Notes under the pieces: model-generated | Databases searched by the model: none | What the model saw: only the letters and a program-made list of their open reading frames with translations | What the model was told of the DNA's origin: nothing | Part shown: in pieces, positions 7,404 through 58,782 of the stretch | Layout of the letters: each line of letters opens with the position of its first letter | Position numbering within the stretch: position 1 is the stretch's first letter | From: Methanothrix sp. | GTDB taxonomy: Archaea; Halobacteriota; Methanosarcinia; Methanotrichales; Methanotrichaceae | Direction of reading: 5' to 3' | Assembly: GCA_963682135.1 (NCBI GenBank) | Contig: OY821645.1 | Span: forward strand, 2,240,001-2,304,000 | DNA: 64,000 bases | Made by a program: the position numbers and the translations under genes

Positions 7404-7448
7404 GCAACGTAGAGCTTTATACCGGTAAAGTTTAAGTACCTTGAGCTC

Positions 7449-10400
7449 CTACTGGCACGTTCCATAATTTCTTCTCCCAGTGCCGTCTGACCTAACTAGC
7501 TTCCTACCGCCATTCTCAACATCTTGCGCAATATTTGCAGATAGTTTAACTCCTTCGATGTTGTCTCCATCGAGTTTGGCTCTGTAAATGTTGGCTCCTG
7601 CAAGGTTTGCTCCATCAAGATTGGCTCCTGTAAGGTTTGCTCCTACAAGATTGGCTCCTGCAAGGTTTGCTCCTACAAGATTGGCTCCTGCAAGGCTTGC
7701 TCCATCGAGTTTGGCTCTGTAAATGTTGGCTCCTGCAAGGTTTGCTCCATCAAGATTGGCTCCCATAAGGTTTGCTCCTACAAGATTGGCTTCTACGAGT
7801 TTCACATCTACAAGTATGGCTCCTGCTAGGAAGCCATTTGCAAGGTTTGCTCCTACAAGATTGACTTTATAAAGGTTGGCCCCGTTTAGGTTGACTTCGT
7901 TTAGGTTGGCTCCTACGAGGTTGGCTTCGTTTAGATTAGCATTGTTTAGATTGGCTCCGTTTAGGTTGGCTCCTACGAGGTTGGCTCTGCTGAGATCTGA
8001 CGAGCATAGATTTGCTTGCCCAAAATCAATGGTTTGCAAAATCGCCCCTATTAGCTTTAAATGCGACAAACATTCTACAACCAAAACCGACTCGCCTTCT
8101 GCCCTTTGCCCCTGGACTCTCTTTAACCACGCTCCGAAGGCTGTTTTATCTGGATGCTCAATGTCGCTGATTTTTCCAGTTATGTATGCACATGCATTCA
8201 AGACCGCTAGCAATGCTTCTTCGGCGTTTCGGGATTGGAAGAGGGCTTCTCTAAATGATGCAAGTTGAAGCTGTTCCATTGGCATCCCATGTCGCAACAT
8301 ATAGCTGAAAAGTTTTGCAAGCATCTCCTGCCAGTGATCCAAGTCCTGAACGAGCTGAAGCCTAATTTCATTGAGAAGGAAGTCATGAAGGTATTGCGAT
8401 ATCGCACTTGGTCCACAGATCTGCGCCCAGTACTTGAGCGCGTCCCGTTCGTCCCAACCTCCATCGGGATTATTGGCACGGCTCTCCAACTCACGGATAA
8501 CTCTTTTGGTAGCTCTAACTATTCGTCTCGCTGTTAAATATTCGCCAAAACTCTTGTGAGTGAATATAAATGTAGGATCTCCGCTGGGGCGTTGGCCATA
8601 TTGTCGAAAGAAAAAGGCTGCGAGCAGCCGCGTAACGCCTGCCTTGGCCCCCTCCTGAAACGCTTCCAGCAACACACCCAGTCCGCTATCGCGACAATGT
8701 TTCTCGATTTCATGCACCGTAGTCGTTCGCCCATCTCCGTGCCAGGCCGCCAAGCCAATCTCTTCAAGCACGCGGGAGAAATCGTCAAGCTTCATGTGAC
8801 GAATGGGTGCGTAAGGCCGGTGCTTTTCGTAGCCACGTTCATGGACCGCGGCGACTAAATCCTCGTAAATTGAGTTCAGATTAACGCCCTTGGTGAAATC
8901 AAGCTTGTCTCGTGTGAAGCTGAGCGCGACTAGATAGTTGAGCAGTGGTTGGGCGGTAACCTCAGCGAGGTCGTCTCGATCCAGCTCATACGGCAGATTA
9001 TTGTATCCTTTGCCAGTCAGAGCGCCGTAGTTCTTCCACCACTGTTGTCGTAGATCGCATTTTAGCAAATTTTCTGGGTCATCATACTCCTCCCCATCTT
9101 GCACAAAATGCCGCTTATGTTCAGGCGGTCGAGGTACAAAGTAAGGAAGCAAAGTGAGGATTTGATGTGGCCGACGAAATTCGGATTCATTCTCCTGCAC
9201 GACTAATTCTCGGCCGCTAATCAGAACGCGAAGCTTAACGCTTTCAAGATTCCGCTTCTCGACGGTCCTATCTATCTCTCGAATAAAAGCTCTTGCAGTC
9301 TCTGCCGCAGCTTTCCCTTGGCTGGCCAATTCGTCAAGGCCATCGAAGATGATTAGCATGCTTGGTTCAGGAGACTCGGGATCTAACGGATTCTGAGGCA
9401 GCACTCCTTCAGCCCTAACAAATCGTCCAACCTCCTCAACTAAGTCTTTGGAGGGGTCGATCAAATGTAATGGAATATACAACGCCTTAAGTTTCGGATC
9501 ATTCGAGAGTTTTGCCGCGAAAACGCGCGCGAATGAAGATTTTCCGCTGCCTGGGCCACCGCTGATGACCCGAATGGCATCCTGCGAGCTAGGATTCTGC
9601 AGCCATTGATCCAACTCTTTTTGCAAAGAAACAACGATGCGTCGGCGCTGCTTACCAGTGAAAGTCATTTCTTCGGACAACTCTTTGGCAGACTTATCCA
9701 CAAAGTAAAATGCGTTCAGTGGAACATAAATCTGGCTTAGGCTAAACGGCTCGTCGAAAATTCCTTCATGGACTCGACGCTGTAGGAGCGCGGAATAAGT
9801 TCTCCACGCACACTCTCGCTCCCCAGCCTTAGCAAAGGGCGTATCCAGCGTAGCAATGAGCGGGCGGTAGTAGTTCGCGTTACATCGCCATTCCTGATTG
9901 AGTGCGTAAACAAAGTAGCTCGGTAGACGGCCAGCAATTGCCTTTGCTGCTGGCTCGCTCACATCGAGGTATTCGAGCCACTTCTGAAGGAGGGATTGAA
10001 TCTCTTTAACCAGAAGCAATTCCGCAGGTCGGTCGAAAAACTTGTGATCAATATGAGCCTCTCCGGTTGAGATGGAAATATCAAATTGGTCCGCCAAGAC
10101 ATCGGAAGCTTTCTTGTTGTCGATCAGTTGTTGGCTGGAATTTTCACCTACTAACTCAAAGATGGCCTTGATAACGGAACGTTGGATGAGGATGTATGCA
10201 AGTTCTTCTGGTTTTGTTTCTAATCCTATGGCAGATAAAGTCTCCCCTGCGTCGGTGCTGAGTTCTTCCCACTTGCCGTAAGCGGTGTGGCCAATGCCTT
10301 TGGAGAGCGCTTTGAAAAGTTGCCTGTAATCAATCTGTAGTGACTTTTCGAAAATTCTCTTGGGTTTTGTCACCTTCAGTTTTGGATTTAATTCAGACAT
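7449..10400 (-). CDS. NACHT/STAND NTPase with C-terminal pentapeptide repeats
   Basis: Walker A GGPGSGKS, Walker [25 protein letters not shown], long (A/N)L.GA pentapeptide tract; ATG at 10400 (MSELNPK). Confidence 0.88.
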
Positions 10401-38023: not shown

Positions 38024-41000
38024 ATGTCATATCGCAATAAGGCGATAGCTTTAGTAATGCTTTTATCGCTGGTTTACCTGCTGGCGGGATTGTCGCTGGG
38101 TGCAGTCGCAGCGCCGCCCAGCCTCACGATAAACCAGCTCGTAACCTCTGAACAGACTGTGACCCTTAAAGCTCCTTCAGGAGATTACTACTACCAATGG
38201 ACCGCTGATACTGGCGGCGCTACCATTGGTCAGGCGACGACGCAGAGTTTTTCGTTTAAAGCTCCCCTGGTAACTCAGGATGAGGGCTCGAAGGCGGTCA
38301 CAATCTCGCTATACATAAGAACCAAAGAAGGAGGTTGTGTCAACCAAACGAGCACCACGATCAATGTCTATTCCCTGCCGGTTTGCGGCATAAGCGGACC
38401 CATATCAGTTGGTCCCTATGAGACTGCCACATACAGTTATTCGGGTGGAACCAGCGGCAAAACGACATTCGTGTGGAATGTTGACGGCAAGAATATCGAT
38501 GGAGCCACCGGGCCAAGTGTTGCCATAGATTGGACCAAATACAGTCTTGTCAATCACACCATCGGCATGACATTGACCAAGGATTACTCTGATGTGGCCC
38601 CCGGTTCAACCAATCCGTTCCGCAGCATAAGCTGTACTTTCCAGACAAATGTGACTTACACCACCGGGATGCAGGTAACCAAGACCCCCTCGGCAGCTTT
38701 TGCAGCGGTAGGCCAGTCAGTTATCTATACCTACACGGTCCAAAATACAGGGACAATAGGCATAAACTCACTGACACTGAGCGATGACAAGCTTGGCACT
38801 CTTACGCCTGCTGCCAAGACGATCCTGCCAGGAGCATCTACAACTGCAACTGCGACCTATATCATAAAAGAGAGCGATCTGCCAGGACCTCTGACCAATA
38901 CAGTAACCGTATCTGGTGTCGAGGACAGAACCAACAAGCCGGTCAGTGCCAAAGCTAATGCTACCGTGGCTCTGACCTATAACGCAGCCTTAAATCTGAC
39001 CAAAGTGCCCTCCTCCGCCACCGCCAAGGTGGGAGATACGGTGACCTACAAGTTCACGGTTACAAATACCGGAAACGTCACAATAAAGGGCTTGAACCTG
39101 ACGGACGATAAGCTGGGAACCATAAAGACCGACAAGACTGAACTTGCTCCGGGAGCTGTTGCAACAGCTTCGGCAACCCATGTCGTATTGGAAAGCGATC
39201 TGCCCGGACCTCTGACCAACGTGGCCACCATAGAGGGCACAGATATCCAAGATCAACCGGTTACGGCGACGGCCACAGCATCGATTGCGCTGACCTACAC
39301 ATCCGGTCTGGCTGTGACTAAGAAGCCATCCTCCAATACTGCAAAAATTGGTGATACTGTAACTTACCAGTTCAGCGTAACGAACAACGGTACGGTCACC
39401 ATAAATGGATTGGCGCTCAATGATGACAAGCTGGGAATCATCACTCTGGACAAGGCATCTCTGCCACCAGGCGAGACCGCCACAGGATCGGCAACGCACA
39501 CCATCATCGAGACCGACCTGCCCGGCCCTCTGACCAATATCGCCACGGCCACAGGCACGGACAGCCAGGGAGTGGCAGTCACAGGCCAAGCAACCGCCGC
39601 GGTCCAGCTTACTTACACTTCCACTTTGCAGGTGACCAAGACTCCATCCACCACAAAGGCAAACGTGGGAGAGACCATAACCTACCAATTCCAGGTTAAG
39701 AACACTGGATCAGTCACTATCAATGCACTGGCTCTGAACGACGATAAGCTTGGGGGCGTCACTCTGGACAGGGAGTCCCTTCTGCCTGGCGAGAGTGCCA
39801 ACGGTACGGCAACACATGTCGTTGTAGAAGGCGATTTGCCCGGACCTCTGACCAATGTCGCCACAGCCACGGGAACAGACCGCCTGGGTACTACGGTTAC
39901 AACAACGGCTACGGCTACAGTCCAGCTTACCTATACCGCTGCTCTGCAGGTGACCAAGATTCCATCTGCGAACACGGCGGCAATCGGTGAGACTGTAACC
40001 TACCAGTACTCCATCGTGAACACTGGAAACGTAACCGTAAATGCTCTGACCCTGACGGATGACAAGCTCGGCGACATAACCCTCAATACCGCCCAGCTGG
40101 CTCCCGGCGGGACAGCCACGGGATCAGCGACGCACACCATCGTCGAGAAGGACCTGCCCGGACCTCTGACCAACATTGCAACGGCTAAAGCAACTGACAG
40201 CCAGAATAAGCCGGTTACAGCAACGGCAACGGCGACGGTCCAGCTTACCTACACGTCCAGCATGAGCGTGACCAAGGTGCCTTCAAGCACAACGGCCGGC
40301 GTGGGAGAACCGGTAACATACACCTACACCGTCAGTAACACGGGCACTATTAACATCACCGGGTTGTCTCTAAGCGACGACAAACTCGGCAAGATAACCA
40401 TAGACAGGACTTCACTGGCCCCCGGAGAGAGCGCAATCGGCACTATTACTTATACTGTGCTCGAAGGCGATCTGCCCGGACCGCTCACCAATATCGTAAC
40501 CGCTACGGCTACGGATAGCTTGAAGCAGCCGATTACTGCAACGGCTACCGCAACAGTTGCTCTGACCTATACGGCCAGCCTGGACGTTGCCAAGGTGCCT
40601 TCAAGCACAACCGCCGTCGTAGGAGAACAGGTAACATACACCTACACCGTTACCAACACGGGTAACGTAACCCTCAAAGGTCTGGCTCTGAGCGACGACA
40701 AGATCGGCACCATAACACCAGCCAAGACCACCATCGCTTCGGGAGAGACAACTACCGCAACGGGAACATACACCGTGCTCGAAGGCGATCTGCCCGGACC
40801 GCTCACTAACGTAGTCACAGTAACGGCCACGGACAGCCAGAACCAGCCGGTCACAAATACGGCAACAGCTACGGTCACCCTGACCTATACGGCCAGCATG
40901 AGCGTGACCAAGGTGCCTTCAAGCACAACAGCCGGCGTAGGAGAACAGGTAACATACACCTACACCGTAAAGAACACGGGTAATGTAACCCTCAATGCTC

Positions 41001-43702
41001 TGGCTCTGAGCGATGACAAGATCGGAACTATAACTCCTGGCCAGACAACTCTCGCTTCGGGAGAGACCACTACTGCAACAGGCATATACACCGTGCTCGA
41101 AGGCGATCTGCCCGGACCGCTCACCAACATCGTCACAGTTTCGGCCACGGACAGCCAGAACCAGGCCGTAACAGCTACGCAGACAGCCACAGTCGCCCTG
41201 ACTTATACCACCAAACTGGAAGTTGCCAAGGTGGCGTCGACGGGAACTGCAGCCGTAGGATCAACCATAACCTATAGCTACACAGTCAAGAACTCCGGAA
41301 CGGTCACCATAAATGGGCTCTCCATGAATGATGACAAGCTCGGCGACATAACCCTGGACGCGAATACACTCGCACCGGGTGCAACTGCCAATGGAACGGC
41401 AACTCACCTCGTAGTGGAAGCCGATCTGCCTGGACCTATTATCAATACGGTAATTGTGACAGGTACAGACAGCCAGAACAATCCTGCCACGGCAACAGCA
41501 ACGGCCACGGTCCAGCTTACCTATACCGCTGCTCTGCAGGTGACCAAGACTCCATCATCCAACACTGCTGCTGTGGGTGAGACTGTAACCTACCAGTATT
41601 CCGTTGTGAACACTGGAAACGTAACCGTAAATGCTCTGACCCTGACAGATGACAAGCTCGGCGATATTACCATGAGTGCCGCCTCGCTGGCTCCGGGAGC
41701 GACGGCCACAGGATCAGCGACGCACACCATCGTCGAGACTGACCTGCCCGGACCTCTGACCAACACGGCAACGGCTAAAGCAACTGACAGCCAGAATAAG
41801 CCGGTTACAGCAACGGCAACGGCGACGGTAACCCTGACCTACACGGCCACGATGGAAGTTACCAAGTCTCCGTCCGCAGCTTCGGCCAGAGTAGGAGAGA
41901 GCATAACCTACACCTACACTGTAAGAAACACGGGAACAGTCTCCATCAAAGGACTGAAGTTGAGTGACGACAAGCTAAAGGAAATCAAAGTAGATAAAGA
42001 TACATTGGTACCGGGCGATACGGCTACCGGAACGGCTACCTACACTATCCTCGAGACGGATCTGCCAGGACCGTTGACAAATGTAGTCACGGTGACGGCA
42101 ACGGATAGCGCCGGGAAGGCAATGACGAGCGAAGCTCGGGCCTCTGTGGAATTAACCTATTCTGCAAGCATGGAGATCGTCAAGACGCCATCCTCCACCA
42201 CGGCCAAAGTGGGAGATACCGTAACCTACTCCTATACAGTGAGGAACACAGGAGAAGTAACTCTCAATGGTCTGGCGCTCACCGACGACAAGCTTGGCGC
42301 TATCAAGATCAACGCCAATACGCTGGCTGCCGGCGAAACGGCGACGGGCACATCAACGCACATCGTAGTTGAGGGCGATCTGCCCGGACCTTTGACCAAC
42401 ATCGTCACAGGTACGGCTACGGACACCCAGGGACAGCCGATTACCGCCACGGCAACAGCAACGGTCGCATTGACCTACACAGCCGCCCTGAACGTTACCA
42501 AGGAGCCATCTGCCAAAACCGCAGCCATCGGTGACACGGTAACCTACAGGTTCACTGTGAAGAACACAGGAAGCGTTACGGTTAACGGTCTGACCCTGAC
42601 GGATGACAAGCTAGGCACCATAAATCCACAACAGGCCACACTTGCACCGGGTGAGACCACGACCGCCTCGATGGATCACATAGTTGTCGAGTCGGATCTG
42701 CCCAGCCCCTTAACCAACGTGGTTACCGCTGCGGCCAATGACATCCTGGGGCAGCCGGTCACATCTACCGCCACTGCTACTGTAGCTCTGACCTACACGG
42801 CAACTGTAGAGATGACAAAGGTTGCATCTCCCACTTCAGCAAAGGTGGGTGAGAAGGTAACTTACACCTACACCATAAGGAATAGCGGAAAGGTCACAAT
42901 CAGCGAACTGGTACTGACGGACGATAAGCTGGGTAGCGTTACTCTGGGCCAAAGATCGGTAGCACCAGGAGGAACGGTAACCGGAAGTGCAACTTACACC
43001 ATCGACGTGAAAGATGTACCGGGACCCATAATCAACACCGCACTACTTGCGGGCAAGGATCCGGCAGGCGGTAGCGTCAGCACCAGGGCCACGGCAACCG
43101 TGACCATAACCAGGGATGCCATTACTCCGACGGTGACATGCGTTGCAGCCAACAGCGACGGCACTTTCACCGCATTCTTTGGCTACAACAATCCCAACAG
43201 CTATGCAGTCACCATAGAGGTAGGAAAGGATAACCAGTTCACGCCACCCCCAGACAGCCGGGGACAGCCCACCACCTTTGAACCGGGAAGCCAGACAGCC
43301 GTCTTTACGGTCGATTCCAAGGGCGAATCTCTAGTATGGCATCTGGAGGGTACCATTGCAGAAGCCAACAAGAACTCAGGCGGATGCTCCATGGCTTCTT
43401 GCGCCTTGGACGGGCCGACTGCCCTCTGCCAGAATAAGGAGGAGACTTACAGCTACACTGCAAAAGAGGATGCAAAGTTCAAGCATAACTACGACTGGTC
43501 CATGGATGACAAACCCCTGGGCTCCGGCAAGAGCATCACCATCTCCGGCAGCAAATTCGAGATGGGAGAGCATAAGCTCAAGCTGAAGGTCAGCAGGAAT
43601 TACAGAGAAAAAGCCTGGTCGAGTGCAGAGTGCAGCATGGCTGTAAAGGTCATACCCGAACCATCCGCGGACATATCCATGGACGAGGAGGGAGGTGACT
43701 AA
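38024..43702 (+). CDS. Giant secreted surface protein with 14 tandem DUF11/DUF7507-like Ig domains
   Basis: Signal peptide; 106-aa (318-bp) repeats L.VTK.PS....VG..VTYTYTV.NTG.V....L.L.DDKLG...E.DLPGPLTN. Confidence 0.9.
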   Translation: MSYRNKAIALVMLLSLVYLLAGLSLGAVAAPPSLTINQLVTSEQTVTLKAPSGDYYYQWTADTGGATIGQATTQSFSFKAPLVTQDEGSKAVTISLYIRTKEGGCVNQTSTTINVYSLPVCGISGPISVGPYETATYSYSGGTSGKTTFVWNVDGKNIDGATGPSVAIDWTKYSLVNHTIGMTLTKDYSDVAPGSTNPFRSISCTFQTNVTYTTGMQVTKTPSAAFAAVGQSVIYTYTVQNTGTIGINSLTLSDDKLGTLTPAAKTILPGASTTATATYIIKESDLPGPLTNTVTVSGVEDRTNKPVSAKANATVALTYNAALNLTKVPSSATAKVGDTVTYKFTVTNTGNVTIKGLNLTDDKLGTIKTDKTELAPGAVATASATHVVLESDLPGPLTNVATIEGTDIQDQPVTATATASIALTYTSGLAVTKKPSSNTAKIGDTVTYQFSVTNNGTVTINGLALNDDKLGIITLDKASLPPGETATGSATHTIIETDLPGPLTNIATATGTDSQGVAVTGQATAAVQLTYTSTLQVTKTPSTTKANVGETITYQFQVKNTGSVTINALALNDDKLGGVTLDRESLLPGESANGTATHVVVEGDLPGPLTNVATATGTDRLGTTVTTTATATVQLTYTAALQVTKIPSANTAAIGETVTYQYSIVNTGNVTVNALTLTDDKLGDITLNTAQLAPGGTATGSATHTIVEKDLPGPLTNIATAKATDSQNKPVTATATATVQLTYTSSMSVTKVPSSTTAGVGEPVTYTYTVSNTGTINITGLSLSDDKLGKITIDRTSLAPGESAIGTITYTVLEGDLPGPLTNIVTATATDSLKQPITATATATVALTYTASLDVAKVPSSTTAVVGEQVTYTYTVTNTGNVTLKGLALSDDKIGTITPAKTTIASGETTTATGTYTVLEGDLPGPLTNVVTVTATDSQNQPVTNTATATVTLTYTASMSVTKVPSSTTAGVGEQVTYTYTVKNTGNVTLNALALSDDKIGTITPGQTTLASGETTTATGIYTVLEGDLPGPLTNIVTVSATDSQNQAVTATQTATVALTYTTKLEVAKVASTGTAAVGSTITYSYTVKNSGTVTINGLSMNDDKLGDITLDANTLAPGATANGTATHLVVEADLPGPIINTVIVTGTDSQNNPATATATATVQLTYTAALQVTKTPSSNTAAVGETVTYQYSVVNTGNVTVNALTLTDDKLGDITMSAASLAPGATATGSATHTIVETDLPGPLTNTATAKATDSQNKPVTATATATVTLTYTATMEVTKSPSAASARVGESITYTYTVRNTGTVSIKGLKLSDDKLKEIKVDKDTLVPGDTATGTATYTILETDLPGPLTNVVTVTATDSAGKAMTSEARASVELTYSASMEIVKTPSSTTAKVGDTVTYSYTVRNTGEVTLNGLALTDDKLGAIKINANTLAAGETATGTSTHIVVEGDLPGPLTNIVTGTATDTQGQPITATATATVALTYTAALNVTKEPSAKTAAIGDTVTYRFTVKNTGSVTVNGLTLTDDKLGTINPQQATLAPGETTTASMDHIVVESDLPSPLTNVVTAAANDILGQPVTSTATATVALTYTATVEMTKVASPTSAKVGEKVTYTYTIRNSGKVTISELVLTDDKLGSVTLGQRSVAPGGTVTGSATYTIDVKDVPGPIINTALLAGKDPAGGSVSTRATATVTITRDAITPTVTCVAANSDGTFTAFFGYNNPNSYAVTIEVGKDNQFTPPPDSRGQPTTFEPGSQTAVFTVDSKGESLVWHLEGTIAEANKNSGGCSMASCALDGPTALCQNKEETYSYTAKEDAKFKHNYDWSMDDKPLGSGKSITISGSKFEMGEHKLKLKVSRNYREKAWSSAECSMAVKVIPEPSADISMDEEGGD
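38650..43110 (+). repeat. 14 x 318-bp coding tandem repeat (boundaries approximate)
   Basis: Recurrent GATCTGCCCGGACC and GACAAGCT motifs at a 318-bp period. Confidence 0.85.
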
Positions 43703-44051
43703 GAAGCTGAGAGTATTCTTCATGCACCTGGTGGCTGCTCCGCCCCAGGTGTAACCATTTTTATTAATTTTATGCACTAAATAAATATAAATTTTTAATC
43801 TGCATTAAATCCTATCCGGAAAAAAGATACTGCCGCCGGATGACGAGCCGTCATTGGCTTCCAGGTTTCAATCCTTGTTTTTGTGGAACTCACCCACGGA
43901 GCTCAAGGGGCCGGATTATCCGATCAATATTATCGCGTTTCAATCCTTGTTTTTGTGGAACTCGCCCCCGGAGTTCATGCAGATTCGTGCAGAAGAGGCG
44001 CACCGTCCGGTTTCCCATGGAAAACCACATAAATCATAATCAGGAGGCGAC

Positions 44052-45377
44052 CTATTCACCTCCCCCGGATGGCCTTTTCTGGCCGGGTTTTGTTATAGAA
44101 ATGGCTCCAAGCTCACGCATAAGAGCATTCTTCCTGCTGCCCTCTTTCAGGTGATAAAAGGCGTCCACAATTGCAGCTACTCTATCCGTCAATTGCTCAT
44201 CCTGAAATGAAGGTGCCTGGCAGGACTTATCCTGACTTGCTCCTCTCGATCTGCATTCACCTTCCTGATACAGCTCCTGGTTGATAAGAAGATGATGAAT
44301 GAGACAGATAAGCTTCCTGGCTACAGCAATAGTGGCTACATTTGGCTCCTTCTTTTTGACCAACCTCTGGAAGAACCTGGAAAGCCGTGTATTTTTCATT
44401 CTTCCGATGGTCTTTGCAGCCTGAACCAGCATAACTCTAATGTACTTGGAACCCTTCTTTGTAATTCCGCATTTTTTCTTTTTGCCCGCAGATTCGCTTT
44501 CTCCAGGATTGAGGCCGCACCATTTAGCGAGTTGGTCAGGTGTCTGAAAATCACGGTAATTTCCAATTTCAGACAATATGGCCGATGCGGATACGAATCC
44601 AATTCCTGGAATTGACATGACGATGGCCAGGTCTTTGCTCTTCTGCTGAATCTTTTTCAGGACCTCATGGCTCAGCTTTTCTATTTTGGATTCGAGATTA
44701 TCAATGAATTCCAGGGCATCTATTAAGAGCATTCTGTTTGTATCATCAAGACTTCTTTCAAGTGCTACCCTAATTTCGTCTTGCTTTTTCCTTATTTTTC
44801 CGGATGGGATGCCTTTCAAGATCTTCTCGATGGACTTCTTTTTTGCCAGACCGTCCAAAATATATCTGCCGGATTTGCAGAATATGTCGTCCATGCAAGA
44901 ACTGAGTTTGATCCCGCATGATGAAAGGTATTTGTGTATCCGATTCCGGAACTGAGTTCGTGTCTTGACATATCCGGACCTGGCTCGAGTTAGAGTCCTG
45001 AGATCTCGGTCTTCATTGGTAAATACCCTAGAGCGCTTGATTTGATTGTTCAGGCAAAGAGATGCAATCCGCTTTGAGTCTTTTGAATCAGATTTGTCGT
45101 TGGGAATAGTCTTTATCTGCAACGGATTGGCAACGATTGTATCTATGGTTTTGCTCAATGCATCATAGATCGGTATCCAATAGACTCCAGTAGCCTCAAA
45201 TGCCACCTGTTCGCATTTGTTGGCTACCAGCCATTTGCGAAATTTCCTAAGTTCAGTTTTCGTTGTCCCAAAATCCATTCGAATCGGTTGAAAATCATCG
45301 CCTGTTATTGTTGCCACGATCAAATCTTTATGGACATCTGCACCGCAAACTCTATCTCTTCGTTTTTTCATATACAT
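44052..45377 (-). CDS. IS110-family (DEDD) transposase/recombinase, copy A
   Basis: GADVHKD, AFEATG.YW, KSD.KD, SIPGIG, GLNPGESESAG (catalytic Ser loop), VARKL; start at 45377 or 45371. Confidence 0.96.
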   Translation of the reverse strand: MYMKKRRDRVCGADVHKDLIVATITGDDFQPIRMDFGTTKTELRKFRKWLVANKCEQVAFEATGVYWIPIYDALSKTIDTIVANPLQIKTIPNDKSDSKDSKRIASLCLNNQIKRSRVFTNEDRDLRTLTRARSGYVKTRTQFRNRIHKYLSSCGIKLSSCMDDIFCKSGRYILDGLAKKKSIEKILKGIPSGKIRKKQDEIRVALERSLDDTNRMLLIDALEFIDNLESKIEKLSHEVLKKIQQKSKDLAIVMSIPGIGFVSASAILSEIGNYRDFQTPDQLAKWCGLNPGESESAGKKKKCGITKKGSKYIRVMLVQAAKTIGRMKNTRLSRFFQRLVKKKEPNVATIAVARKLICLIHHLLINQELYQEGECRSRGASQDKSCQAPSFQDEQLTDRVAAIVDAFYHLKEGSRKNALMRELGAISITKPGQKRPSGGGE

Positions 45378-45604
45378 TTCTGCCTGGTATGGGCAGATGA
45401 TGTTTCCCTGATATGAGATAATTTCCCATACGCGTTCTATGACGCAGTCCCGTATTCGGGGGATCTTGGCTCGTTTCAATCGCGGGATCAGCCGTCCCAT
45501 AAACTTGTCAGCCTTCACTGCCCATAACCACATTTAACGTGAACGGATTACAATATGTGGTTTTCCATCCGTCACGTGTGAGCCTCTGCCTGGGGCGCAT
45601 GGGC
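45378..45604 (-). ncRNA. Candidate bridge RNA region of IS110 copy A
   Basis: About 230-nt 5' non-coding end with hairpins, a 9-nt match to the target repeat (45473-45481) and matches to the donor junction; RNA ends unknown. Confidence 0.6.
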
Positions 45605-46305
45605 GTTTCAATCCTTGTTTTTGTGGAACTCGCCCTCGGAGGATACCGATTTCAGTTATATCAAGTGTTTCACAAAGAAGTTTCAATCCTTGTTTTTGTG
45701 GAACTCGCCCTCGGAGTTTCTGCTATCCTGGCCGTCGCCGGGTAGTTCCTGAGTTTCAATCCTTGTTTTTGTGGAACTCGCCCTCGGAGATGTCTATCCT
45801 CATTCCGGTCCTACGAGCAAAGTCTTGTTTCAATCCTTGTTTTTGTGGAACTCGCCCTCGGAGGCAGAAGATGAAAAGATAGAGTACCGGATGAACGAGT
45901 TTCAATCCTTGTTTTTGTGGAACTCGCCCTCGGAGCAAACTACGGTCGATGCTATCAAGGCCAAGACTGAGTTTCAATCCTTGTTTTTGTGGAACTCGCC
46001 CTCGGAGCCAGGATGAAGCAACTTGACCTTTCCAGCTTCAAAAGGTTTCAATCCTTGTTTTTGTGGAACTCGCCCTCGGAGTCATTTAAGCCACCGCCTC
46101 TGTCCACTCATAGTTCAGTTTCAATCCTTGTTTTTGTGGAACTCGCCCTCGGAGGCCAAGATTACCCTCAAGGATGCAGCAGAGGTGGGTTTCAATCCTT
46201 GTTTTTGTGGAACTCGCCCTCGGAGGGACTGGACAATCAAGGGAAGCGGTGCCGTCACCGCCAGTTTCCCATGGAAAACCACATAAATCATAATCAGGAG
46301 GCGAC

Positions 46306-47631
46306 CTATTCACCTCCCCCGGATGGCCTTTTCTGGCCGGGTTTTGTTATAGAAATGGCTCCAAGCTCACGCATAAGAGCATTCTTCCTGCTGCCCTCTT
46401 TCAGGTGATAAAAGGCGTCCACAATTGCAGCTACTCTATCCGTCAATTGCTCATCCTGAAATGAAGGTGCCTGGCAGGACTTATCCTGACTTGCTCCTCT
46501 CGATCTGCATTCACCTTCCTGATACAGCTCCTGGTTGATAAGAAGATGATGAATGAGACAGATAAGCTTCCTGGCTACAGCAATAGTGGCTACATTTGGC
46601 TCCTTCTTTTTGACCAACCTCTGGAAGAACCTGGAAAGCCGTGTATTTTTCATTCTTCCGATGGTCTTTGCAGCCTGAACCAGCATAACTCTAATGTACT
46701 TGGAACCCTTCTTTGTAATTCCGCATTTTTTCTTTTTGCCCGCAGATTCGCTTTCTCCAGGATTGAGGCCGCACCATTTAGCGAGTTGGTCAGGTGTCTG
46801 AAAATCACGGTAATTTCCAATTTCAGACAATATGGCCGATGCGGATACGAATCCAATTCCTGGAATTGACATGACGATGGCCAGGTCTTTGCTCTTCTGC
46901 TGAATCTTTTTCAGGACCTCATGGCTCAGCTTTTCTATTTTGGATTCGAGATTATCAATGAATTCCAGGGCATCTATTAAGAGCATTCTGTTTGTATCAT
47001 CAAGACTTCTTTCAAGTGCTACCCTAATTTCGTCTTGCTTTTTCCTTATTTTTCCGGATGGGATGCCTTTCAAGATCTTCTCGATGGACTTCTTTTTTGC
47101 CAGACCGTCCAAAATATATCTGCCGGATTTGCAGAATATGTCGTCCATGCAAGAACTGAGTTTGATCCCGCATGATGAAAGGTATTTGTGTATCCGATTC
47201 CGGAACTGAGTTCGTGTCTTGACATATCCGGACCTGGCTCGAGTTAGAGTCCTGAGATCTCGGTCTTCATTGGTAAATACCCTAGAGCGCTTGATTTGAT
47301 TGTTCAGGCAAAGAGATGCAATCCGCTTTGAGTCTTTTGAATCAGATTTGTCGTTGGGAATAGTCTTTATCTGCAACGGATTGGCAACGATTGTATCTAT
47401 GGTTTTGCTCAATGCATCATAGATCGGTATCCAATAGACTCCAGTAGCCTCAAATGCCACCTGTTCGCATTTGTTGGCTACCAGCCATTTGCGAAATTTC
47501 CTAAGTTCAGTTTTCGTTGTCCCAAAATCCATTCGAATCGGTTGAAAATCATCGCCTGTTATTGTTGCCACGATCAAATCTTTATGGACATCTGCACCGC
47601 AAACTCTATCTCTTCGTTTTTTCATATACAT
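46306..47631 (-). CDS. IS110-family transposase/recombinase, copy B
   Basis: Translation identical to copy A. Confidence 0.96.
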   Translation of the reverse strand: MYMKKRRDRVCGADVHKDLIVATITGDDFQPIRMDFGTTKTELRKFRKWLVANKCEQVAFEATGVYWIPIYDALSKTIDTIVANPLQIKTIPNDKSDSKDSKRIASLCLNNQIKRSRVFTNEDRDLRTLTRARSGYVKTRTQFRNRIHKYLSSCGIKLSSCMDDIFCKSGRYILDGLAKKKSIEKILKGIPSGKIRKKQDEIRVALERSLDDTNRMLLIDALEFIDNLESKIEKLSHEVLKKIQQKSKDLAIVMSIPGIGFVSASAILSEIGNYRDFQTPDQLAKWCGLNPGESESAGKKKKCGITKKGSKYIRVMLVQAAKTIGRMKNTRLSRFFQRLVKKKEPNVATIAVARKLICLIHHLLINQELYQEGECRSRGASQDKSCQAPSFQDEQLTDRVAAIVDAFYHLKEGSRKNALMRELGAISITKPGQKRPSGGGE

Positions 47632-47858
47632 TTCTGCCTGGTATGGGCAGATGATGTTTCCCTGATATGAGATAATTTCCCATACGCGTTCTATGACGCA
47701 GTCCCGTATTCGGGGGATCTTGGCTCGTTTCAATCGCGGGATCAGCCGTCCCATAAACTTGTCAGCCTTCACTGCCCATAACCACATTTAACGTGAACGG
47801 ATTACAATATGTGGTTTTCCATCCGTCACGTGTGAGCCTCTGCCTGGGGCGCATGGGC
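47632..47858 (-). ncRNA. Candidate bridge RNA region of IS110 copy B
   Basis: Same sequence as copy A; GTTTCAATC at 47727-47735. Confidence 0.6.
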
Positions 47859-48189
47859 GTTTCAATCCTTGTTTTTGTGGAACTCGCCCTCGGAGATTGA
47901 ACGATAATGTCACGGATGACAGTGGAAATGGTAAGTTTCAATCCTTGTTTTTGTGGAACTCGCCCTCGGAGTTCGGGGCGATATACTGGAGCTTTCCGGG
48001 TCGGAGGGTTTCAATCCTTGTTTTTGTGGAACTCGCCCTCGGAGCCTGGAACGGTCCGGCCAGTGCGGTGTCTGAGCTGTGTTTCAATCCTTGTTTTTGT
48101 GGAACTCGCCCTCGGAGAGGGAACATTTCGTTGAAGCCGACAAATTGATTGAGTTTCAATCCTTGTTTTTGTGGAACTCGCCCTCGGAG

Positions 48190-48400
48190 AGCGGCTTTTT
48201 TTCGTCCTTTTCCCTGTTTCTCATCGTCAAACCGGCCTTTTCTCACCCTCCTTAAATCATGAGTAGAATTTATTAGAGGGCTTATAAATTCATTCCGGCA
48301 GGTGGGCCAAAAAATAGGCTTCCTGCCAAAAAACAGATAATGCATACCTATTTCTGTTTTGCATATGCACCGTGACTTTTGTAAACCTATTTCTCATCTG
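48190..48400 (-). promoter_or_regulatory. CRISPR leader with archaeal TATA box
   Basis: AT-rich non-coding DNA beside the conserved end of the array; minus-strand TTTATAAG near 48281-48289. Confidence 0.7.
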
Positions 48401-48541
48401 CAAATATCCTCTTGGTAGAAAAAGGTTTTTATGGAAAGGCTTCCATAAAACATACTCAATGTGCGAGAGTTCGAATCCAGTGAATTACTCCATGCGCAAG
48501 ATTTTCTTCGCAGATGACTCGACTCTGATCTCAATATATTA

Positions 48542-49216
48542 TTAGCCTTTGTTTTCCGCAAGCTTCAGCCCAACAACCGCCCCGTAACCTCTGGAGACAG
48601 ACTTGCCCAGCCCCAGGAGGTCTGGAATGGCGAAGGTTGTGGTGAACTCGCCTCGTATTCCCGTTACCTTTGTTCCCTTCAGCAGGCAGATCTCGTCCTG
48701 CATCCTGCCAACCTCCAGCCGAATGTGCTCTTTGGCCACGTAGCCCAGCCCCTTGGAGGCGGATAGGATGTTGCCCACCAGTATTCTTCTCAGCAGATCT
48801 CTTCTTTCCTCTCTGTTTGCATTTATGTATTTGGGATAGTTTTCCTGGCTCAGCGCCAACCAGGGCGTGGCGAAACTGTAGCTGTGAATCACCTCAGAGC
48901 AGCCGAACTCCTCACTCTTTAGGGTAATGCCGCGCTCCATGATGCTGTATTTGCTATCGCCCAATTTGATCTCATCGAATTTGTCGTAGATCTCCTTCAG
49001 GACATCTGCCCCCTCGTTGATGCCCAGCACGAGGGGACTATCTTCCAGCATCTTGTACTGGATGAGCGGATACTTGTAGATCAGCTTGTCTGTCACATGC
49101 TGGTGTAGCAGTGCATGCTCATTGAAGCTGGTGGCAAAGAAGCCGCGCAGTTTGGCGGCGTCCCCGTGCATGGGCGCGTCCGAGTGCAGGGTGAGGCGGA
49201 GGATTTTGAGGATCAT
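48542..49216 (-). CDS. cas6: CRISPR endoribonuclease Cas6 (Cas6b type)
   Basis: KLRGFF, IYKYPLIQYK, F.TPWLAL.QENY, LVGNILS..KGL, GLGKSVSRGYG glycine loop. Confidence 0.93.
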   Translation of the reverse strand: MILKILRLTLHSDAPMHGDAAKLRGFFATSFNEHALLHQHVTDKLIYKYPLIQYKMLEDSPLVLGINEGADVLKEIYDKFDEIKLGDSKYSIMERGITLKSEEFGCSEVIHSYSFATPWLALSQENYPKYINANREERRDLLRRILVGNILSASKGLGYVAKEHIRLEVGRMQDEICLLKGTKVTGIRGEFTTTFAIPDLLGLGKSVSRGYGAVVGLKLAENKG

Positions 49217-49240
49217 GGTCGTCAAGGATTTTCGTTTCGT

Positions 49241-49486
49241 CTAAACTTCGGCATTTGTTTCAATGGCAATCGTACGTGCCACTGAACCACAACTTTCAAC
49301 AGGCACTTCTTCGCCGCGGGCAATCATGCAAGCTACGAAGCCTTCAATGGCCTCCCTTGCCATCACCAGCGCCTCTTCAATCGTTCGCCCGAATGTCAGA
49401 CAACCTGGGAGAGATGGTACAATCACCGTGTAAGTTCCATCTTCCTCTTTTCGGAGCAGAACTTCGTAACGCAATGTCTCCATCAT
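49241..49486 (-). CDS. hicB: HicB-family antitoxin-like protein (no adjacent hicA)
   Basis: EEDGTYTVIVPSLPGCLTFGRTIEEALVMAREAIE. Confidence 0.88.
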   Translation of the reverse strand: MMETLRYEVLLRKEEDGTYTVIVPSLPGCLTFGRTIEEALVMAREAIEGFVACMIARGEEVPVESCGSVARTIAIETNAEV

Positions 49487-52780: not shown

Positions 52781-53809
52781 TCAAAACGCTATTGGCTTTA
52801 TGGCTATGCCGGTAGCTGCTGCCAATCCTTCAATTGGGAAACCGGCCCCTTCTTTGCAGAACTTAATTCTGTCGTCCACGCAAATCTCAATATCCTTGAT
52901 TGAGCCCTTCTCAGCAGCAAGTTTATTGACCAGCTCCGATATCTCCAGCTGGTAATCTATGGTGTCACGAATATTCTCATGAGGCATCTCGGTTACCAGT
53001 TTCAGCATCTTATCCAGATCCCCGATGTGATAACTCTCTTTGCTGTAATTCACCTTAAGGAGCAACCTGGGAACCTGTCCTGCTTTAGATCTGGAAATCA
53101 GGCTCTTGGTTCCATTCCAGATGCCATCCAGCAAAAGTTTTACATCATCTTCTGAGAGACCGGTGTGCTTAGCAGCGTTCTCATTTATTATACCATAGAA
53201 TGATATTAGTGAATATGGCAGAAAATCTTCTTCTCTGAACGTTGCTCTTGTAGATTTATCATCAGATGCAAAAGCTCCTTTACCCCTAAAATGCTTCATC
53301 GAGACACGATGAAGAGATCGACCGATCTTGAACTGTACTGGTCCCGTAAAGGTCAAAGATCCTTTTTCATCTTTTTCTTTATTGGTATCTTTATCGTTTT
53401 CAGTTTTTTTTCCGGGCTTTACTTTAATCTCCAAAGGTATTGTAGCACCAAATAATCTAACATCCAAGCAATTAGCTAAAATTCTATCAGATATAATTTT
53501 TCTTTGTTGTTCAAATGATAATTCTTTGATATCTACAGTTTCATCTTTTAAGAAGTCCATTGCTCTTTTCTTTGCTGTTTGCATATTGCCGCTATCATCC
53601 TTTATTTCTCGAATAAAGATCTCTTTGCCCTTAAAGTCATACAGAAAATCTCGAATAGTTCTCTTTAATCGGACATCTGTTACAATATTTACACCAGTTT
53701 CCTCGTCCATCCTAGGCTTGTTTTCATCCAGAGGATCCCCATTTGGATTTCCATCTCTTATGTCGTAGATGAAAATAATCTCTGACCTGTTCTTTATAGT
53801 TTCGCTCAT
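52781..53809 (-). CDS. cas7: Cas7, type I-B (Csh2)
   Basis: NPNGDP, VTDVRLKRTIRD, DVRLFGA, TGPVQF, SRSKAGQ.PRLL. Confidence 0.95.
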   Translation of the reverse strand: MSETIKNRSEIIFIYDIRDGNPNGDPLDENKPRMDEETGVNIVTDVRLKRTIRDFLYDFKGKEIFIREIKDDSGNMQTAKKRAMDFLKDETVDIKELSFEQQRKIISDRILANCLDVRLFGATIPLEIKVKPGKKTENDKDTNKEKDEKGSLTFTGPVQFKIGRSLHRVSMKHFRGKGAFASDDKSTRATFREEDFLPYSLISFYGIINENAAKHTGLSEDDVKLLLDGIWNGTKSLISRSKAGQVPRLLLKVNYSKESYHIGDLDKMLKLVTEMPHENIRDTIDYQLEISELVNKLAAEKGSIKDIEICVDDRIKFCKEGAGFPIEGLAAATGIAIKPIAF

Positions 53810-55706
53810 TCTTGTGTCTCCCCTTCAATCTCTGGCTCATCTTCTGTTGAATTCTTGAACAACTTATGCAAATCCATTCCCAAAACAAAATAGAAGCTTA
53901 GCTCGTCATCTCCTTCTTTCCAATTTATTCCAGACGAGACAAAGTGATTTGCAATGATCTCTTCCAGTTGCCGATAATAATTCTTGTCGTACTCTTCCAG
54001 CTTAATTTGAATTTTTGGAAGGAGTCTCTTGATCAGTGCTTCATTCATCTTCAAGCCATGTAATTTATTGCGAAATGGAGTTGCATTTTTGTCCCTCCAC
54101 TGTATGTTAAGGAGCTTCTGAGTCAATACCCCTTCCAAAAAGGTCGCCTTCTTAGAATCGCTATTGAAGAACGCCTTATTTGCTTCGAAGAACCTCTCAA
54201 TACGTAGCTCTAATGGGAGGCTTTCCAGCTCTTCGATGCGAAGAACCTCACGTTCCTGTTCATTCATGTCTTTCATCTCCGCGTTCTTTGCTTTGAAAAG
54301 AATTAGCTTCTCTATGTAGTGCAAGAGCAAGAAGCCATTCAATGAAGTTATCTTAGTAGAATAACCCTTTATGAACGCCTCTCTTACCTTACTCATTATA
54401 AAATCTATCAACAAATAATAGCTGATTTGATCTCCAACAAATATCTTGTCAACCATTTCCAAGAATATTTTATCGAAAGTTCTATTTTTAGATTCGGATG
54501 GGAAGAATCGTCTCAAAACTCCAAAATTAAAAACTAATTGGTGGTTTTCCCTCTGACCTTCGCCTAATATTAAATCATTATAAATTTTGAATATCTCATC
54601 CACTTTTTCTTTGGCTTTGAAAAGTGCTCTTAGTCTTGATGGAAAAATTCCCTCAATTAAAAGGAGGATTCTATATGATGATTGCTCCTTCTTATAAAAT
54701 ATCAAGCTGTTGCTAAAGAAATCTTTTTCATCTTTGACAGCATCACAGCATCAATGATCTTATACTCGTCAGAAGTTATCATGTTCTTATCATCACGATT
54801 TAGTTTTAGCTCCCGTTTTTGTTCCTTCTTACCCAGGATGCTCAATACCTCTTTAAGGAGCTTTTTATCATCTCCTTTAAACGTTATTTTTGGCACGAGG
54901 AGATATCTGAAGCCGTAGAAGCTAAAGTCAAGGTTTTCTTCGATGTACTTCTTTCCAACTTCCAGACGCGTGGCACAATCGAAACATACTGGTGTATTCT
55001 TCCAGGATTCATTGACATCAAATCCACCTGCAATAAATCCAGGCTTATCAAAGGTGTGGAAAGTCCAGGGAATAGCGAAGCCATATACTTCATCTTTGAC
55101 CCCTTTGCAGACTGAGCAGGCAGCATTTTTTCCCCGCGATTCTCCATGAGTCTTCTTAAGAAAATACTTGTCCTTACCCATTCGAAGCAAGATCTTTTCA
55201 AAAATCGGACATTTGCTAAGATAAGAATAGTCTTCGCCATTTTCAAAACCCAGAGTGATAATGGCGTTATCTTTCGAGTCTTTTTCGGAGTATTCCTCTT
55301 GTAGTCCTGCCAAAATTTTATCTCTCTGATCATTGATTGCGATTTTCATCTTTTTGAGGATCTCCTTTTCTTCCTCAGAAATATCATAGCTATCATAATT
55401 CTCGAACCATTTTAGGAATCTATTCTGGAAGGTCTTTTCTAAATTGCCCGCCAATTTGCTCGTGGGTGTCGCGTCAGTGCCATTTGGAGCACCTTTTTTA
55501 TATAAATATAAATTAAAATCTGTCTTAAACTCGTCTCGTATAACACGGCTAAAAGAATACTCCCCGTCCTTTTCGCATAATAATACTAATAATACCCATT
55601 TATATTTTCCATTGCTATTGGGATTCTCGATATATGTGGAAAGCGAATCTACTCCCACACTATTCTTTTGGATGTAGTCCCCGATTTTGCTTACCGCTTC
55701 AATCAC
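53806..55706 (-). pseudogene. cas8b: Cas8b (Csh1) split by a frameshift into 54702-55706 and 53806-54705
   Basis: CSVC, FHTFDKPGF, PVCFDC, FPSR, FLEGVL...LL.IQ, FYFVLG; the 8-bp tandem duplication at 54738-54753 breaks the frame. Confidence 0.9.
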
Positions 55707-57672: not shown

Positions 57673-58782
57673 TCAACCTCGATTACTATCATTCTGATCC
57701 GCATTGGGCTCTCTTGCCGGTGTTTCGCATGATGTGCTTTCTCGTTCTCCTCCGCCATCTTCCCCATCCAGCTCCAGGATATTTTGATCATAATCCTCCG
57801 CCAGCTCCTGGCCTGGTCGGATGAGCGAATTGGCAATCCTGTGGCACTCCATCTGAATGGTGTTACGGGTCTTGATATTGCGGCCCCGGTAGAGAATCGT
57901 CTCCTCGAAATTCTTGTTGAGAGCCTCGATGAGGGCAGCTTTGCCGTCCTTGGAGAGGCCCATGCCCTGCTCCAGCGGCTCGAAGAACTCGTCTTTGATC
58001 ATGCGCCTGCTGAAGAGATAGACCACAGTCTCATCCACGTAAATGCGAAACATCTCAATGATATCAAAGACCAGTGACATCTTGTTGTAAGAGTCGGTGT
58101 GCAAAAAACCCACGTAGGGATCCAAGCCGGCGATGATGCAGCCCTTTTCCACCATCGAATAGAGAACGCCATATCCGTAGTTGAGCAGAGCATTGAACTC
58201 GTCTTTAGCCGGATTTCTGCTCCTTCCGGCAAAGCGATACTTCTCGGGCATGATGGCGGAGATGGCATTGAAGTAGGCCCGCGCCGCTTTGCCCTCCAAT
58301 CCGAGCATATCCTGCCGCCGGGCGTCGATGCTGCCCCGCAGCCTCTTCATCTGCTCTTTGGACTGCTCAATCTCCTCGATGAACCCATCCAGCTCCACTC
58401 TCTTCTCCTCTCTGGTCTTCCTCAATTTGACCAGAAGCAGAGTCTGGTTGTCCAATTTCTTCAGGCCCCACTCTTTAGCCAAATTCAGGCCGTCCGTTGT
58501 GTCGTAAATCTCCAGTTGCCTTCTGCGAATCAATGTGGTGCTGCCCAGCTTGGGATGCCATACCCTGCCGTAGGGGTCCCCGTGGGAATCAAGAAAAACG
58601 ATATCAATGTTGTTGTCCACAGCCAGCTTGATGGCATCGGTAGTGATATATGCAGACGTTGTAATTAAAATGCTACTGACTTTGCCCACCGCTACTTCAA
58701 AACTCCTATCCTCTCTCTTTACTAGAAAACAGTTCCCGCTCTTGCGAAGATATGCACCATAGCTGTTGATTACAAGCTGCAC
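57673..58782 (-). CDS. cas1: Cas1
   Basis: GLEG..AR.YF, F.GR...PA.D..NALLNYGYG.LY, GLDPY.GFLH, SLVFDIIE.FR. Confidence 0.97.
   Translation of the reverse strand: MQLVINSYGAYLRKSGNCFLVKREDRSFEVAVGKVSSILITTSAYITTDAIKLAVDNNIDIVFLDSHGDPYGRVWHPKLGSTTLIRRRQLEIYDTTDGLNLAKEWGLKKLDNQTLLLVKLRKTREEKRVELDGFIEEIEQSKEQMKRLRGSIDARRQDMLGLEGKAARAYFNAISAIMPEKYRFAGRSRNPAKDEFNALLNYGYGVLYSMVEKGCIIAGLDPYVGFLHTDSYNKMSLVFDIIEMFRIYVDETVVYLFSRRMIKDEFFEPLEQGMGLSKDGKAALIEALNKNFEETILYRGRNIKTRNTIQMECHRIANSLIRPGQELAEDYDQNILELDGEDGGGERESTSCETPAREPNADQNDSNRG

Follow-up and report, generated by a model that had tools for sequence, protein, structure and literature searches.

The type I-B CRISPR-Cas locus and its two insertions

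The window (the whole stretch of Methanothrix sp. DNA analysed here, 64,000 nt) carries a type I-B CRISPR-Cas locus whose array is interrupted by two copies of an insertion sequence (IS). The features on which the analysis centres are the following.

43865 to 48189, minus strand: CRISPR array of the type I-B locus, 16 full 37-nt repeats (CTCCGAGGGCGAGTTCCACAAAAACAAGGATTGAAAC), interrupted by the two IS copies
48190 to 48541, minus strand: presumed leader, between the first repeat and cas6b, so named from its position only
48542 to 49225, minus strand: cas6b (Cas6b_N + Cas6b_C), first gene of the type I-B cas cluster
57673 to 58782: cas1, far end of the type I-B cas cluster
44015 to 45604, minus strand: IS110-family element, copy A, 1590 nt between two GAAAC
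46269 to 47858, minus strand: copy B of the IS110-family element, with 100% identity to copy A
44052 to 45371, minus strand: copy A recombinase gene, coding for 439 aa when read from the ATG that is conserved among relatives, with DEDD_Tnp_IS110 and Transposase_20 domains
46306 to 47625, minus strand: recombinase gene of copy B

Upstream of the array and on the same strand lie cas6b, a HicB-like ORF, cas3, cas5, cas7, cas8b (as two ORFs), cas4 and cas1; these seven cas genes, beside 37-nt repeats ending in ATTGAAAC, place the locus in type I-B. Since its two leader-distal repeats are degenerate, the array is read from high to low coordinates on the minus strand, the strand that also encodes the transposase; leader and cas6b stand at the high-coordinate end and the degenerate repeats at the low-coordinate one. 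Uninterrupted spacers measure 34–39 nt. Against the Rfam family CRISPR-DR7 the repeats scored 30–34.5 bits, short of the gathering score of 37 bits, and an Rfam search with E up to 1 returned CRISPR-DR7 matches only and no bridge-RNA family.

Some further features of the neighbourhood may be recorded here. The HicB-like antitoxin-family ORF (49241–49486, minus) sits between cas6b and cas3. The two ORFs of cas8b (53806–55706, minus) overlap by 4 nt and match PF09484 positions 1–323 and 334–601; the gene is possibly frameshifted, in which case Cascade may be defective and Cas6b intact. A 1892-aa ORF on the plus strand (38024–43702), with nine tandem 318-nt (106-aa) repeats of 61–77% identity, probably encodes a repetitive surface protein. 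The host genome (G000), a single 3.04-Mb contig, has three more arrays (G000:C1 69803–70390, 75311–76409 and 2949593–2950362, with 9, 16 and 11 repeats) of two other repeat types that likewise end in ATTGAAAC; none of them holds the element in this genome, and the second of the two repeat types carries it three times in another one (G083).

Boundaries and copies of the element

The junctions of copy A are made up as follows, with the corresponding positions of copy B in brackets.

45605 to 45641, minus strand (47859 to 47895): sequence-intact repeat before the element, its last C (45605) probably element-borne
45569 to 45604, minus strand (47823 to 47858): 36-nt segment GCCCATGCGCCCCAGGCAGAGGCTCACACGTGACGG after the repeat, the first 36 nt of the left end past the C
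45554 to 45568, minus strand (47808 to 47822): left inverted-repeat arm ATGGAAAACCACATA, 15 nt
44017 to 44031, minus strand (46271 to 46285): right inverted-repeat arm TATGTGGTTTTCCAT, perfect complement of the left arm
44010 to 44014, minus strand (46264 to 46268): GAAAC past the right end, read as a G from the element, the AAA core and the C that closed the repeat before insertion

The two copies, of which copy B lies 2254 nt upstream, are 100% identical over the 1632 bases compared, and each has a sequence-intact repeat before it and GAAAC plus a spacer after it. The repeat at 45605–45641 matches the other full repeats of the array exactly (CRISPR-DR7, 34.5 bits). The geometry given in a preliminary description of the locus was reproduced in full: exactly 36 nt separate this repeat from the 15-bp inverted-repeat arm, a length inside the spacer range; the other arm ends 2 nt (GG) before the GAAAC at 44014–44010 (GTTTC on the opposite strand); and behind a sequence-intact repeat stands an IS110-type element with a guide RNA region, oriented in sense with the array. 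As had also been stated there, GAAAC precedes every copy, so any crRNA-like product would have a self-like flank. A block duplication was rejected as the origin of the two copies, as the spacers flanking each of them are all different.

A third copy, again 100% identical, lies outside any array in the host genome, with the same 36 nt and with flanks ...GGATATGAAAC / GAAAT... (at greater length, ...CTCGGATATGAAAC on the left and GAAATCTAATTC on the right). Because the same 36 nt travel with this non-array copy, they are element DNA and not a spacer. The host genome has in addition a 66% identical paralogue, in which the homologous segment measures 31 nt.

Among the relatives compared, the left junction always reads AAAC followed by a (G/A/C)CCCATG-like sequence, and the right junction reads CATGG, then GAAA, then C, T, G or A depending on the site. 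The simplest reading is that the core lies within AAA and that the element starts with C and ends with ...CATGG(G), which suggests that the last C of the seemingly intact repeat was supplied by the element and that this repeat is a hybrid. For the exact core, and for where the C came from, the comparison of junctions is the basis, since no empty site was recovered: in the contigs of four DNA runs none joined across either IS, and a search of 59 genomes of the genus for the orthologous empty site of the third copy gave only fragments of 65–73% identity. Nor did the contigs of those runs contain a circle junction. Annotators should be aware that the repeat before such an element would be a hybrid, and that the end of an IS inside an array can pass for a spacer.

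At 45610, 47864 and 46265, contigs of runs X1, X2, X5 and X6 have loose ends in which the left end is joined to two or more other flanks, each with ATGAAAC as its last bases, which points to further insertion sites in those communities.

The recombinase and its family

The recombinase matched PF01548 with 76.2 bits (cut-off 29, 3.1e-21) and PF02371 with 85.4 bits (cut-off 21.3, 3.5e-24), and in a comparison with the PDB it showed weak homology to the transposases of IS621 (E = 4.6e-6) and ISCro4. The start of a longer ORF of 493 aa was rejected as the true gene start since this ORF crosses the conserved non-coding RNA region. The left end upstream of the recombinase, some 233 nt, is non-coding and has a consensus fold of 51 pairs. 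By its domains and architecture the element is an IS110-family, bridge-RNA-guided insertion sequence, and we infer that the structured left end is its bridge RNA, starting at or before left-end nt 7.

A search with the recombinase in 105 genomes of the order gave matches at E ≤ 1e-40 in 52 of them. A wider scan through the genomes of 185,579 species returned 16 loci, all of them labelled Methanothrix, Methanotrichaceae or Methanosarcinales; as these duplicate genomes already analysed, they were left out of the counts.

Guide segments and target

Three short segments of the left end correspond to the insertion site or to the ends of the element itself (positions in copy B in brackets).

45473 to 45481, minus strand (47727 to 47735): target guide GATTGAAAC, equal to the last 9 nt of the repeat
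45501 to 45506, minus strand (47755 to 47760): AAGTTT, candidate right-target guide, complementing AAAC and two bases of the right flank
45422 to 45429, minus strand (47676 to 47683): ATGGGAAA, candidate donor guide, equal to the right end plus core

The target guide equals the 3' end of the repeat, which encodes the crRNA 5' tag AUUGAAAC. Type I-B Cas6b is described as cutting 37-nt repeats so as to leave this 8-nt 5' tag on the crRNA (PMC3479195), in agreement with the preliminary description, which had the Cas6 cut fall 8 nt before the repeat end. To judge from this correspondence, the target of the element is the crRNA-tag octamer ATTGAAAC, and we would have here a natural guide set to the crRNA tag sequence.

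When the left ends of 17 relatives are aligned, the guide stands out as a variable stretch with conserved blocks on either side. In five clades (that of the window, L004, L030, L045 and L048) the left-end segment at about nt 114–136 equals the left flank plus C, in the last four as follows.

L028 and L057 (L004 clade): left-end block CCCTAAAC, left flank CCCTAAAC (including the element's C)
L030 clade: left-end block GGCTAAAAC, left flank GGCTAAAAC (including the element's C)
L045: left-end block CGCAAAGA, left flank CGCAAAGA (including the element's C)
L048: left-end block CACAAAAA, left flank CACAAAAA

Across the relatives this co-variation of guide and left flank extends over more than ten specificities. 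A check of further relatives, which took in 18 of the 20 matches of the covariance model described below, gave an exact match of 8–10 nt between the flank (with the first element bases) and left-end nt 114–128 in 13 of 18, a match of 5–6 nt only in four and none in one.

The right flank is complemented by the 5' side of the loop in three clades: CATCCTTT against the right flank AAAGGATG in L057, CCCTTT against AAAGGG in L004, and 7 of 8 positions of core plus right flank in L030. It is from this co-variation in the L004, L057 and L030 clades that AAGTTT is put forward as a candidate right-target guide. Other left-end segments match the element's own ends, namely ATGGGAAA (right end and core) and, for the left end, GCCCAT and ATGGGC; as the family shows no variation at these ends, the matches come without co-variation.

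In the predicted target-binding loop (45473–45506 and 47727–47760, minus), the right guide is on the 5' side and the 9-nt left guide on the 3' side. The bridge RNA of IS621, as described by Durrant et al. 2024 (PMC11208160), has a target-binding loop with the left guide on its 5' side and the right guide on its 3' side. This canonical layout was not found in the fold predicted here and, with the order of the target guides reversed relative to IS621, the RNA architecture is not simply canonical.

The 36-nt segment

Segment length was counted from the base that follows the first C as far as the conserved ATG(A/G/T)AAAAC arm, in 23 distinct left ends (two more were left out).

30 nt: 6 distinct left ends
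31 nt: 4 distinct left ends
35 nt: 8 distinct left ends
36 nt: 3 distinct left ends
37 nt: 2 distinct left ends

Segments of 35–37 nt occur in eight distinct relatives whose targets are not CRISPR repeats (L045, L048, L049, L038, L044, L034, L040 and L039). These have other guides and recombinases of 42–47% identity, and the flank is single-copy in seven of the eight, that of L049 being too short to test. The close CRISPR-homing clade has 35–36 nt and the nearest non-CRISPR sister clade 31 nt, a difference that maps to the loop of SL1, the terminal one of two hairpins.

about 45579 to 45599, minus strand: hairpin SL1, within the 36-nt segment
45538 to 45576, minus strand: hairpin SL2, with its 5' strand in the 36-nt segment and the left arm ATGGAAAACCACATA mostly in its loop

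The segment thus holds the terminal CCCATG, SL1 and the 5' strand of SL2. The SL1 stem co-varies between relatives (GAGCC/GGCTC, GATCC/GGATC, GAGGC/GCCTC), and in SL2 left-end nt 30–36 pair with nt 60–68, past the inverted-repeat arm. Over 13 pairs of SL1 and SL2, 96.7% of the cells were paired, against 25–48% with slid partners; compensatory changes were seen in 2 of the 13, a modest number from related sequences. In some clades G-U stands in for G-C, which argues for a sense-strand RNA. In a comparison with 200 shuffled versions, the left end in the window folded only slightly better (z = -1.65), 11 of the shuffles folding as well. Searched against 22 further loci, a covariance model covering the first 97 positions of the left end yielded 20 matches, of which 19 were full-length and the twentieth was cut by a contig end.

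The central claim of the preliminary description, that the end of the element mimics a spacer, did not hold up against these results. The segment measures 36 nt at the non-CRISPR copy as well, 35–37 nt in the eight non-CRISPR relatives and 30–31 nt in others, while conserved hairpins run past nt 36 and no repeat-like sequence comes after it. A similar end length in homologs outside arrays had been named beforehand as the finding that would count against the claim, and eight homologs have one (35–37 nt). Because nothing repeat-like was found past nt 36 in the window, Cas6b could not make a spacer-sized product there. On the comparison of left ends, the 36 nt are an ordinary, ancestral part of the left end of the family, and their falling in the spacer range is a coincidence.

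Insertions into arrays among relatives

Within the clade of 76–100% recombinase identity, 12 of 21 left junctions lie in CRISPR arrays, where the flank recurs 5–35 times at a spacing of about 73 nt. They come from six genomes (G000 with two, G076 with three, G035 with two, G078 and G079 with one each, G083 with three) and hit four repeat types (...GAGTTCCACAAAAACAAGGATTGAAAC, ...AGCAAGTTCCACGAAAACAAGGATTGAAAC, ...ATTTCTGAGAAGAAGTGGCCCCATTGAAAC and ...CGAACCAGAAAACCCGATAGGGATTGAAAC). The remaining 9 of 21 are single-copy sites that end in ATTGAAAC or a one-off variant of it (L003, L021, L022, L024, L026, L042, L052, L053 and L054). These junctions indicate that a bridge-RNA IS110 lineage with its guide set to the crRNA tag is recurrently colonising arrays of several repeat types, which would explain the presence of several identical IS copies in the same orientation in archaeal CRISPR arrays. 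All 12 array insertions are in sense; since the guide dictates orientation, this is not independent evidence.

The octamer ATTGAAAC occurs 132 times in the host genome, three of these being the elements' own guides, and 52 of the remaining 129 sites are CRISPR repeats, in four arrays. The array share of insertions (12 of 21) is therefore not clearly above the array share of target sites in the host genome (52 of 129): arrays are the richest target pool, and no preference beyond that is apparent. The spacers of the four arrays of the host genome gave no match to the element, the longest exact one being 13 nt.

Neighbouring copies are exactly 8 spacers (9 repeats) apart in three of four intervals (window 44015–47858, L051 in G035 and L050 in G076), measuring 2254, 2256 and 2259 nt from left end to left end; the fourth interval is one spacer. 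The three genomes with the 9-repeat interval share no spacers with one another, and the spacing hints at an additional local rule of target choice. At L050 (G076:C12, minus, about 7290–8766) a copy that lacks its first 127 nt or so lies directly past the right end and GAAAC of a full copy, and starts just past its own GATTGAAAC guide; apparently the guide-coding DNA of one copy served as the target of another. In the G035 array (L051), spacers 5–7 are identical to spacers 17–19, an internal duplication beside a copy of the element.

Integration into the array and possible expression through it

The locus is very probably the outcome of a bridge-RNA IS110 element having integrated twice in the type I-B array by way of a guide that equals the crRNA-tag end of the repeat, with the 36 nt being simply its left end. 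Four observations underlie this reading: the boundaries of the element, the co-variation of guide and flank, the conserved pairing and the recurrent insertion into arrays of relatives. The left end would encode a structured RNA, one loop of which carries GATTGAAAC, letter for letter the final 9 nt of the repeat, and the complex of recombinase and RNA would recombine the circular element with the repeat end at the AAA core. A full repeat would be regenerated on the left from the element's own first C, and GAAAC would be left before the old spacer on the right; the junction of the circle would then read ...CCATGG-GAAA-CGCCCATG.... As the guide would fix the orientation, every array insertion would come to lie in sense with pre-crRNA transcription. 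The 36 nt, in turn, would consist of the donor site (the terminal CCCATG), followed by a conserved hairpin and then by the 5' strand of the next, an arrangement common to relatives with quite different targets. Once integrated, read-through from the leader and a Cas6b cut 8 nt before the element would give an RNA tagged with AUUGAAAC.

Two other accounts give the 36 nt themselves a role as, or like, a spacer. One takes the segment for a genuine spacer, with the element bounded by the 15-bp inverted repeats and the copies arising through duplication of a repeat-spacer-IS block. In its favour, the inverted repeats are perfect and the right arm is nearly terminal, but it would require the loss of 32 nt of repeat on the right side, and it is contradicted by the 36 nt going with the element at the non-array site and being conserved in relatives from other genomes, by the spacers flanking the two copies all being different, and by what a genuine spacer should show: no repeat follows the segment, and each of its three copies in the genome comes with the element. 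We consider it extremely improbable. The other, the strong form of the idea in the preliminary description, holds that the left end is shaped like a spacer, so that the leader promoter, Cas6b and perhaps Cascade would express, process and load the RNA of the element. The length within the 34–39 nt of spacers, the intact repeat upstream and the sense orientation in 12 of 12 array insertions all fit with it, as does the contrast between the CRISPR-homing clade and its nearest non-CRISPR sister clade (35–36 against 31 nt). However, this contrast amounts to the loop of SL1, eight relatives with other targets (42–47% recombinase identity) also have 35–37 nt, nt 30–36 pair beyond the inverted-repeat arm, nothing repeat-like follows nt 36, orientation is set by the guide, and the element thrives outside arrays too (9 of 21 junctions). 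This account is accordingly quite unlikely, if less so than the genuine spacer.

A weaker form of the same idea is compatible with integration through the tag-directed guide, and proposes that homing into arrays pays because pre-crRNA read-through would express the element, with the Cas6b cut fixing the 5' end of its RNA 8 nt ahead of the left end. For integrated IS621, read-through from the flank is reported to express bridge RNA and recombinase and to be needed for excision, which a terminator placed upstream of the left end abolishes (PMC13626964). I-B arrays, for their part, are described as constitutively transcribed and cut to the AUUGAAAC tag (PMC3479195). As conserved pairing reaches back to left-end nt 7, the start of the RNA must lie at the element boundary or upstream of it, and the sense strand of the element contains no T-run of five or more that could stop the archaeal polymerase, although in 1.6 kb such an absence is not significant (about one would be expected, by our estimate). 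On the other hand, repeats may be just an abundant, conserved and harmless target, as REP elements are for bacterial IS110s (PMC11208160). Leader read-through and Cas6b processing of the element RNA are thus plausible; that they are what makes array homing pay is a possibility that we take seriously while leaning against it. The AUUGAAAC-tagged RNA would be an automatic by-product of integration through the tag-directed guide and might help expression. In either case such arrays offer a natural test of how integrated IS110 copies get the read-through transcription required for excision.

An AT/T-rich box lies 18–30 nt before the right end in all clades and, speculatively, could be a TATA-type junction promoter or an outward one. 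A broader scenario can be put together from these elements, which we offer tentatively and rate a little below the read-through proposal: a lineage whose guide is set to the near-universal tag octamer ATTGAAAC would home in sense into arrays of unrelated repeat types, where pre-crRNA transcription and Cas6b would supply and trim the read-through RNA that it needs, the AT-rich box at the right end may restart transcription of the array, and the 9-repeat spacing would reflect a local rule.

Relation to known systems

Bridge recombinases are intensely studied as programmable genome-writing tools, and their described natural targets are mostly REP-like repeats. A different connection between mobile elements and CRISPR is that of the CRISPR-associated Tn7-like transposons (CASTs), whose targets are chosen by crRNA and Cas proteins. 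Like CASTs, the element described here interacts with CRISPR components; unlike them, it brings its own guide RNA, and the array is its landing site and possibly its source of transcription. Two RNA-guided systems would in this way be linked, with the transposon using CRISPR arrays as a multi-copy landing pad.

The literature search returned no description of an IS110 element or bridge RNA targeting CRISPR repeats, although the supplementary target list of PMC11208160 may already include CRISPR-like ones. The nearest leads to homing on CRISPR repeats came from two articles only, PMC6352166 and PMC10883916. The former concerns IS1000A/B of Thermus thermophilus, members of the IS110 family, whose catalogued end is identical to host CRISPR repeats over 32 bp, an identity to be expected of an element that targets a CRISPR repeat or was taken into the catalogue from one. 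In the passages on IS1000, compared here by description, the case is read as CRISPR recruiting IS fragments, with no guide RNA, analysis of insertion sites or relation to the crRNA tag brought in (PMC6352166). The latter concerns ISC1229 of Saccharolobus, likewise of the IS110 family and archaeal, which is bound by the CRISPR-repeat-binding protein Cbp1 at a sequence recognised in the manner of a CRISPR repeat; what is reported in its account of this element is protein binding in the 3' flank and not array insertion (PMC10883916).

The closest parallels are with IS621 and the IS110 bridge recombinases as described in PMC11208160 and by Hiraizumi et al. 2026 (PMC13626964). The element of the window shares with them the same two recombinase domains, a long non-coding left end in which a 5' stem-loop is followed by guide-holding loops, one guide identical to the left target together with the core and another, shorter, complementing the right target, candidate segments matching the donor, a short core at both junctions and repeated natural targets. 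It departs from them in its archaeal host, in having the 3' end of a CRISPR repeat as its target instead of REP elements, in an apparent AAA core against CT, in carrying the target guides on opposite sides of the loop, and in that any junction promoter would have to be TATA-type. A further difference from IS621 is the extra inverted repeat of 10–15 bp, through which the right end is linked to one of the loops in the left end. The arms of this repeat co-vary between clades, ATGGAAAACC occurring with GGTTTTCCAT and ATGAAAAACC with GGTTTTTCAT.
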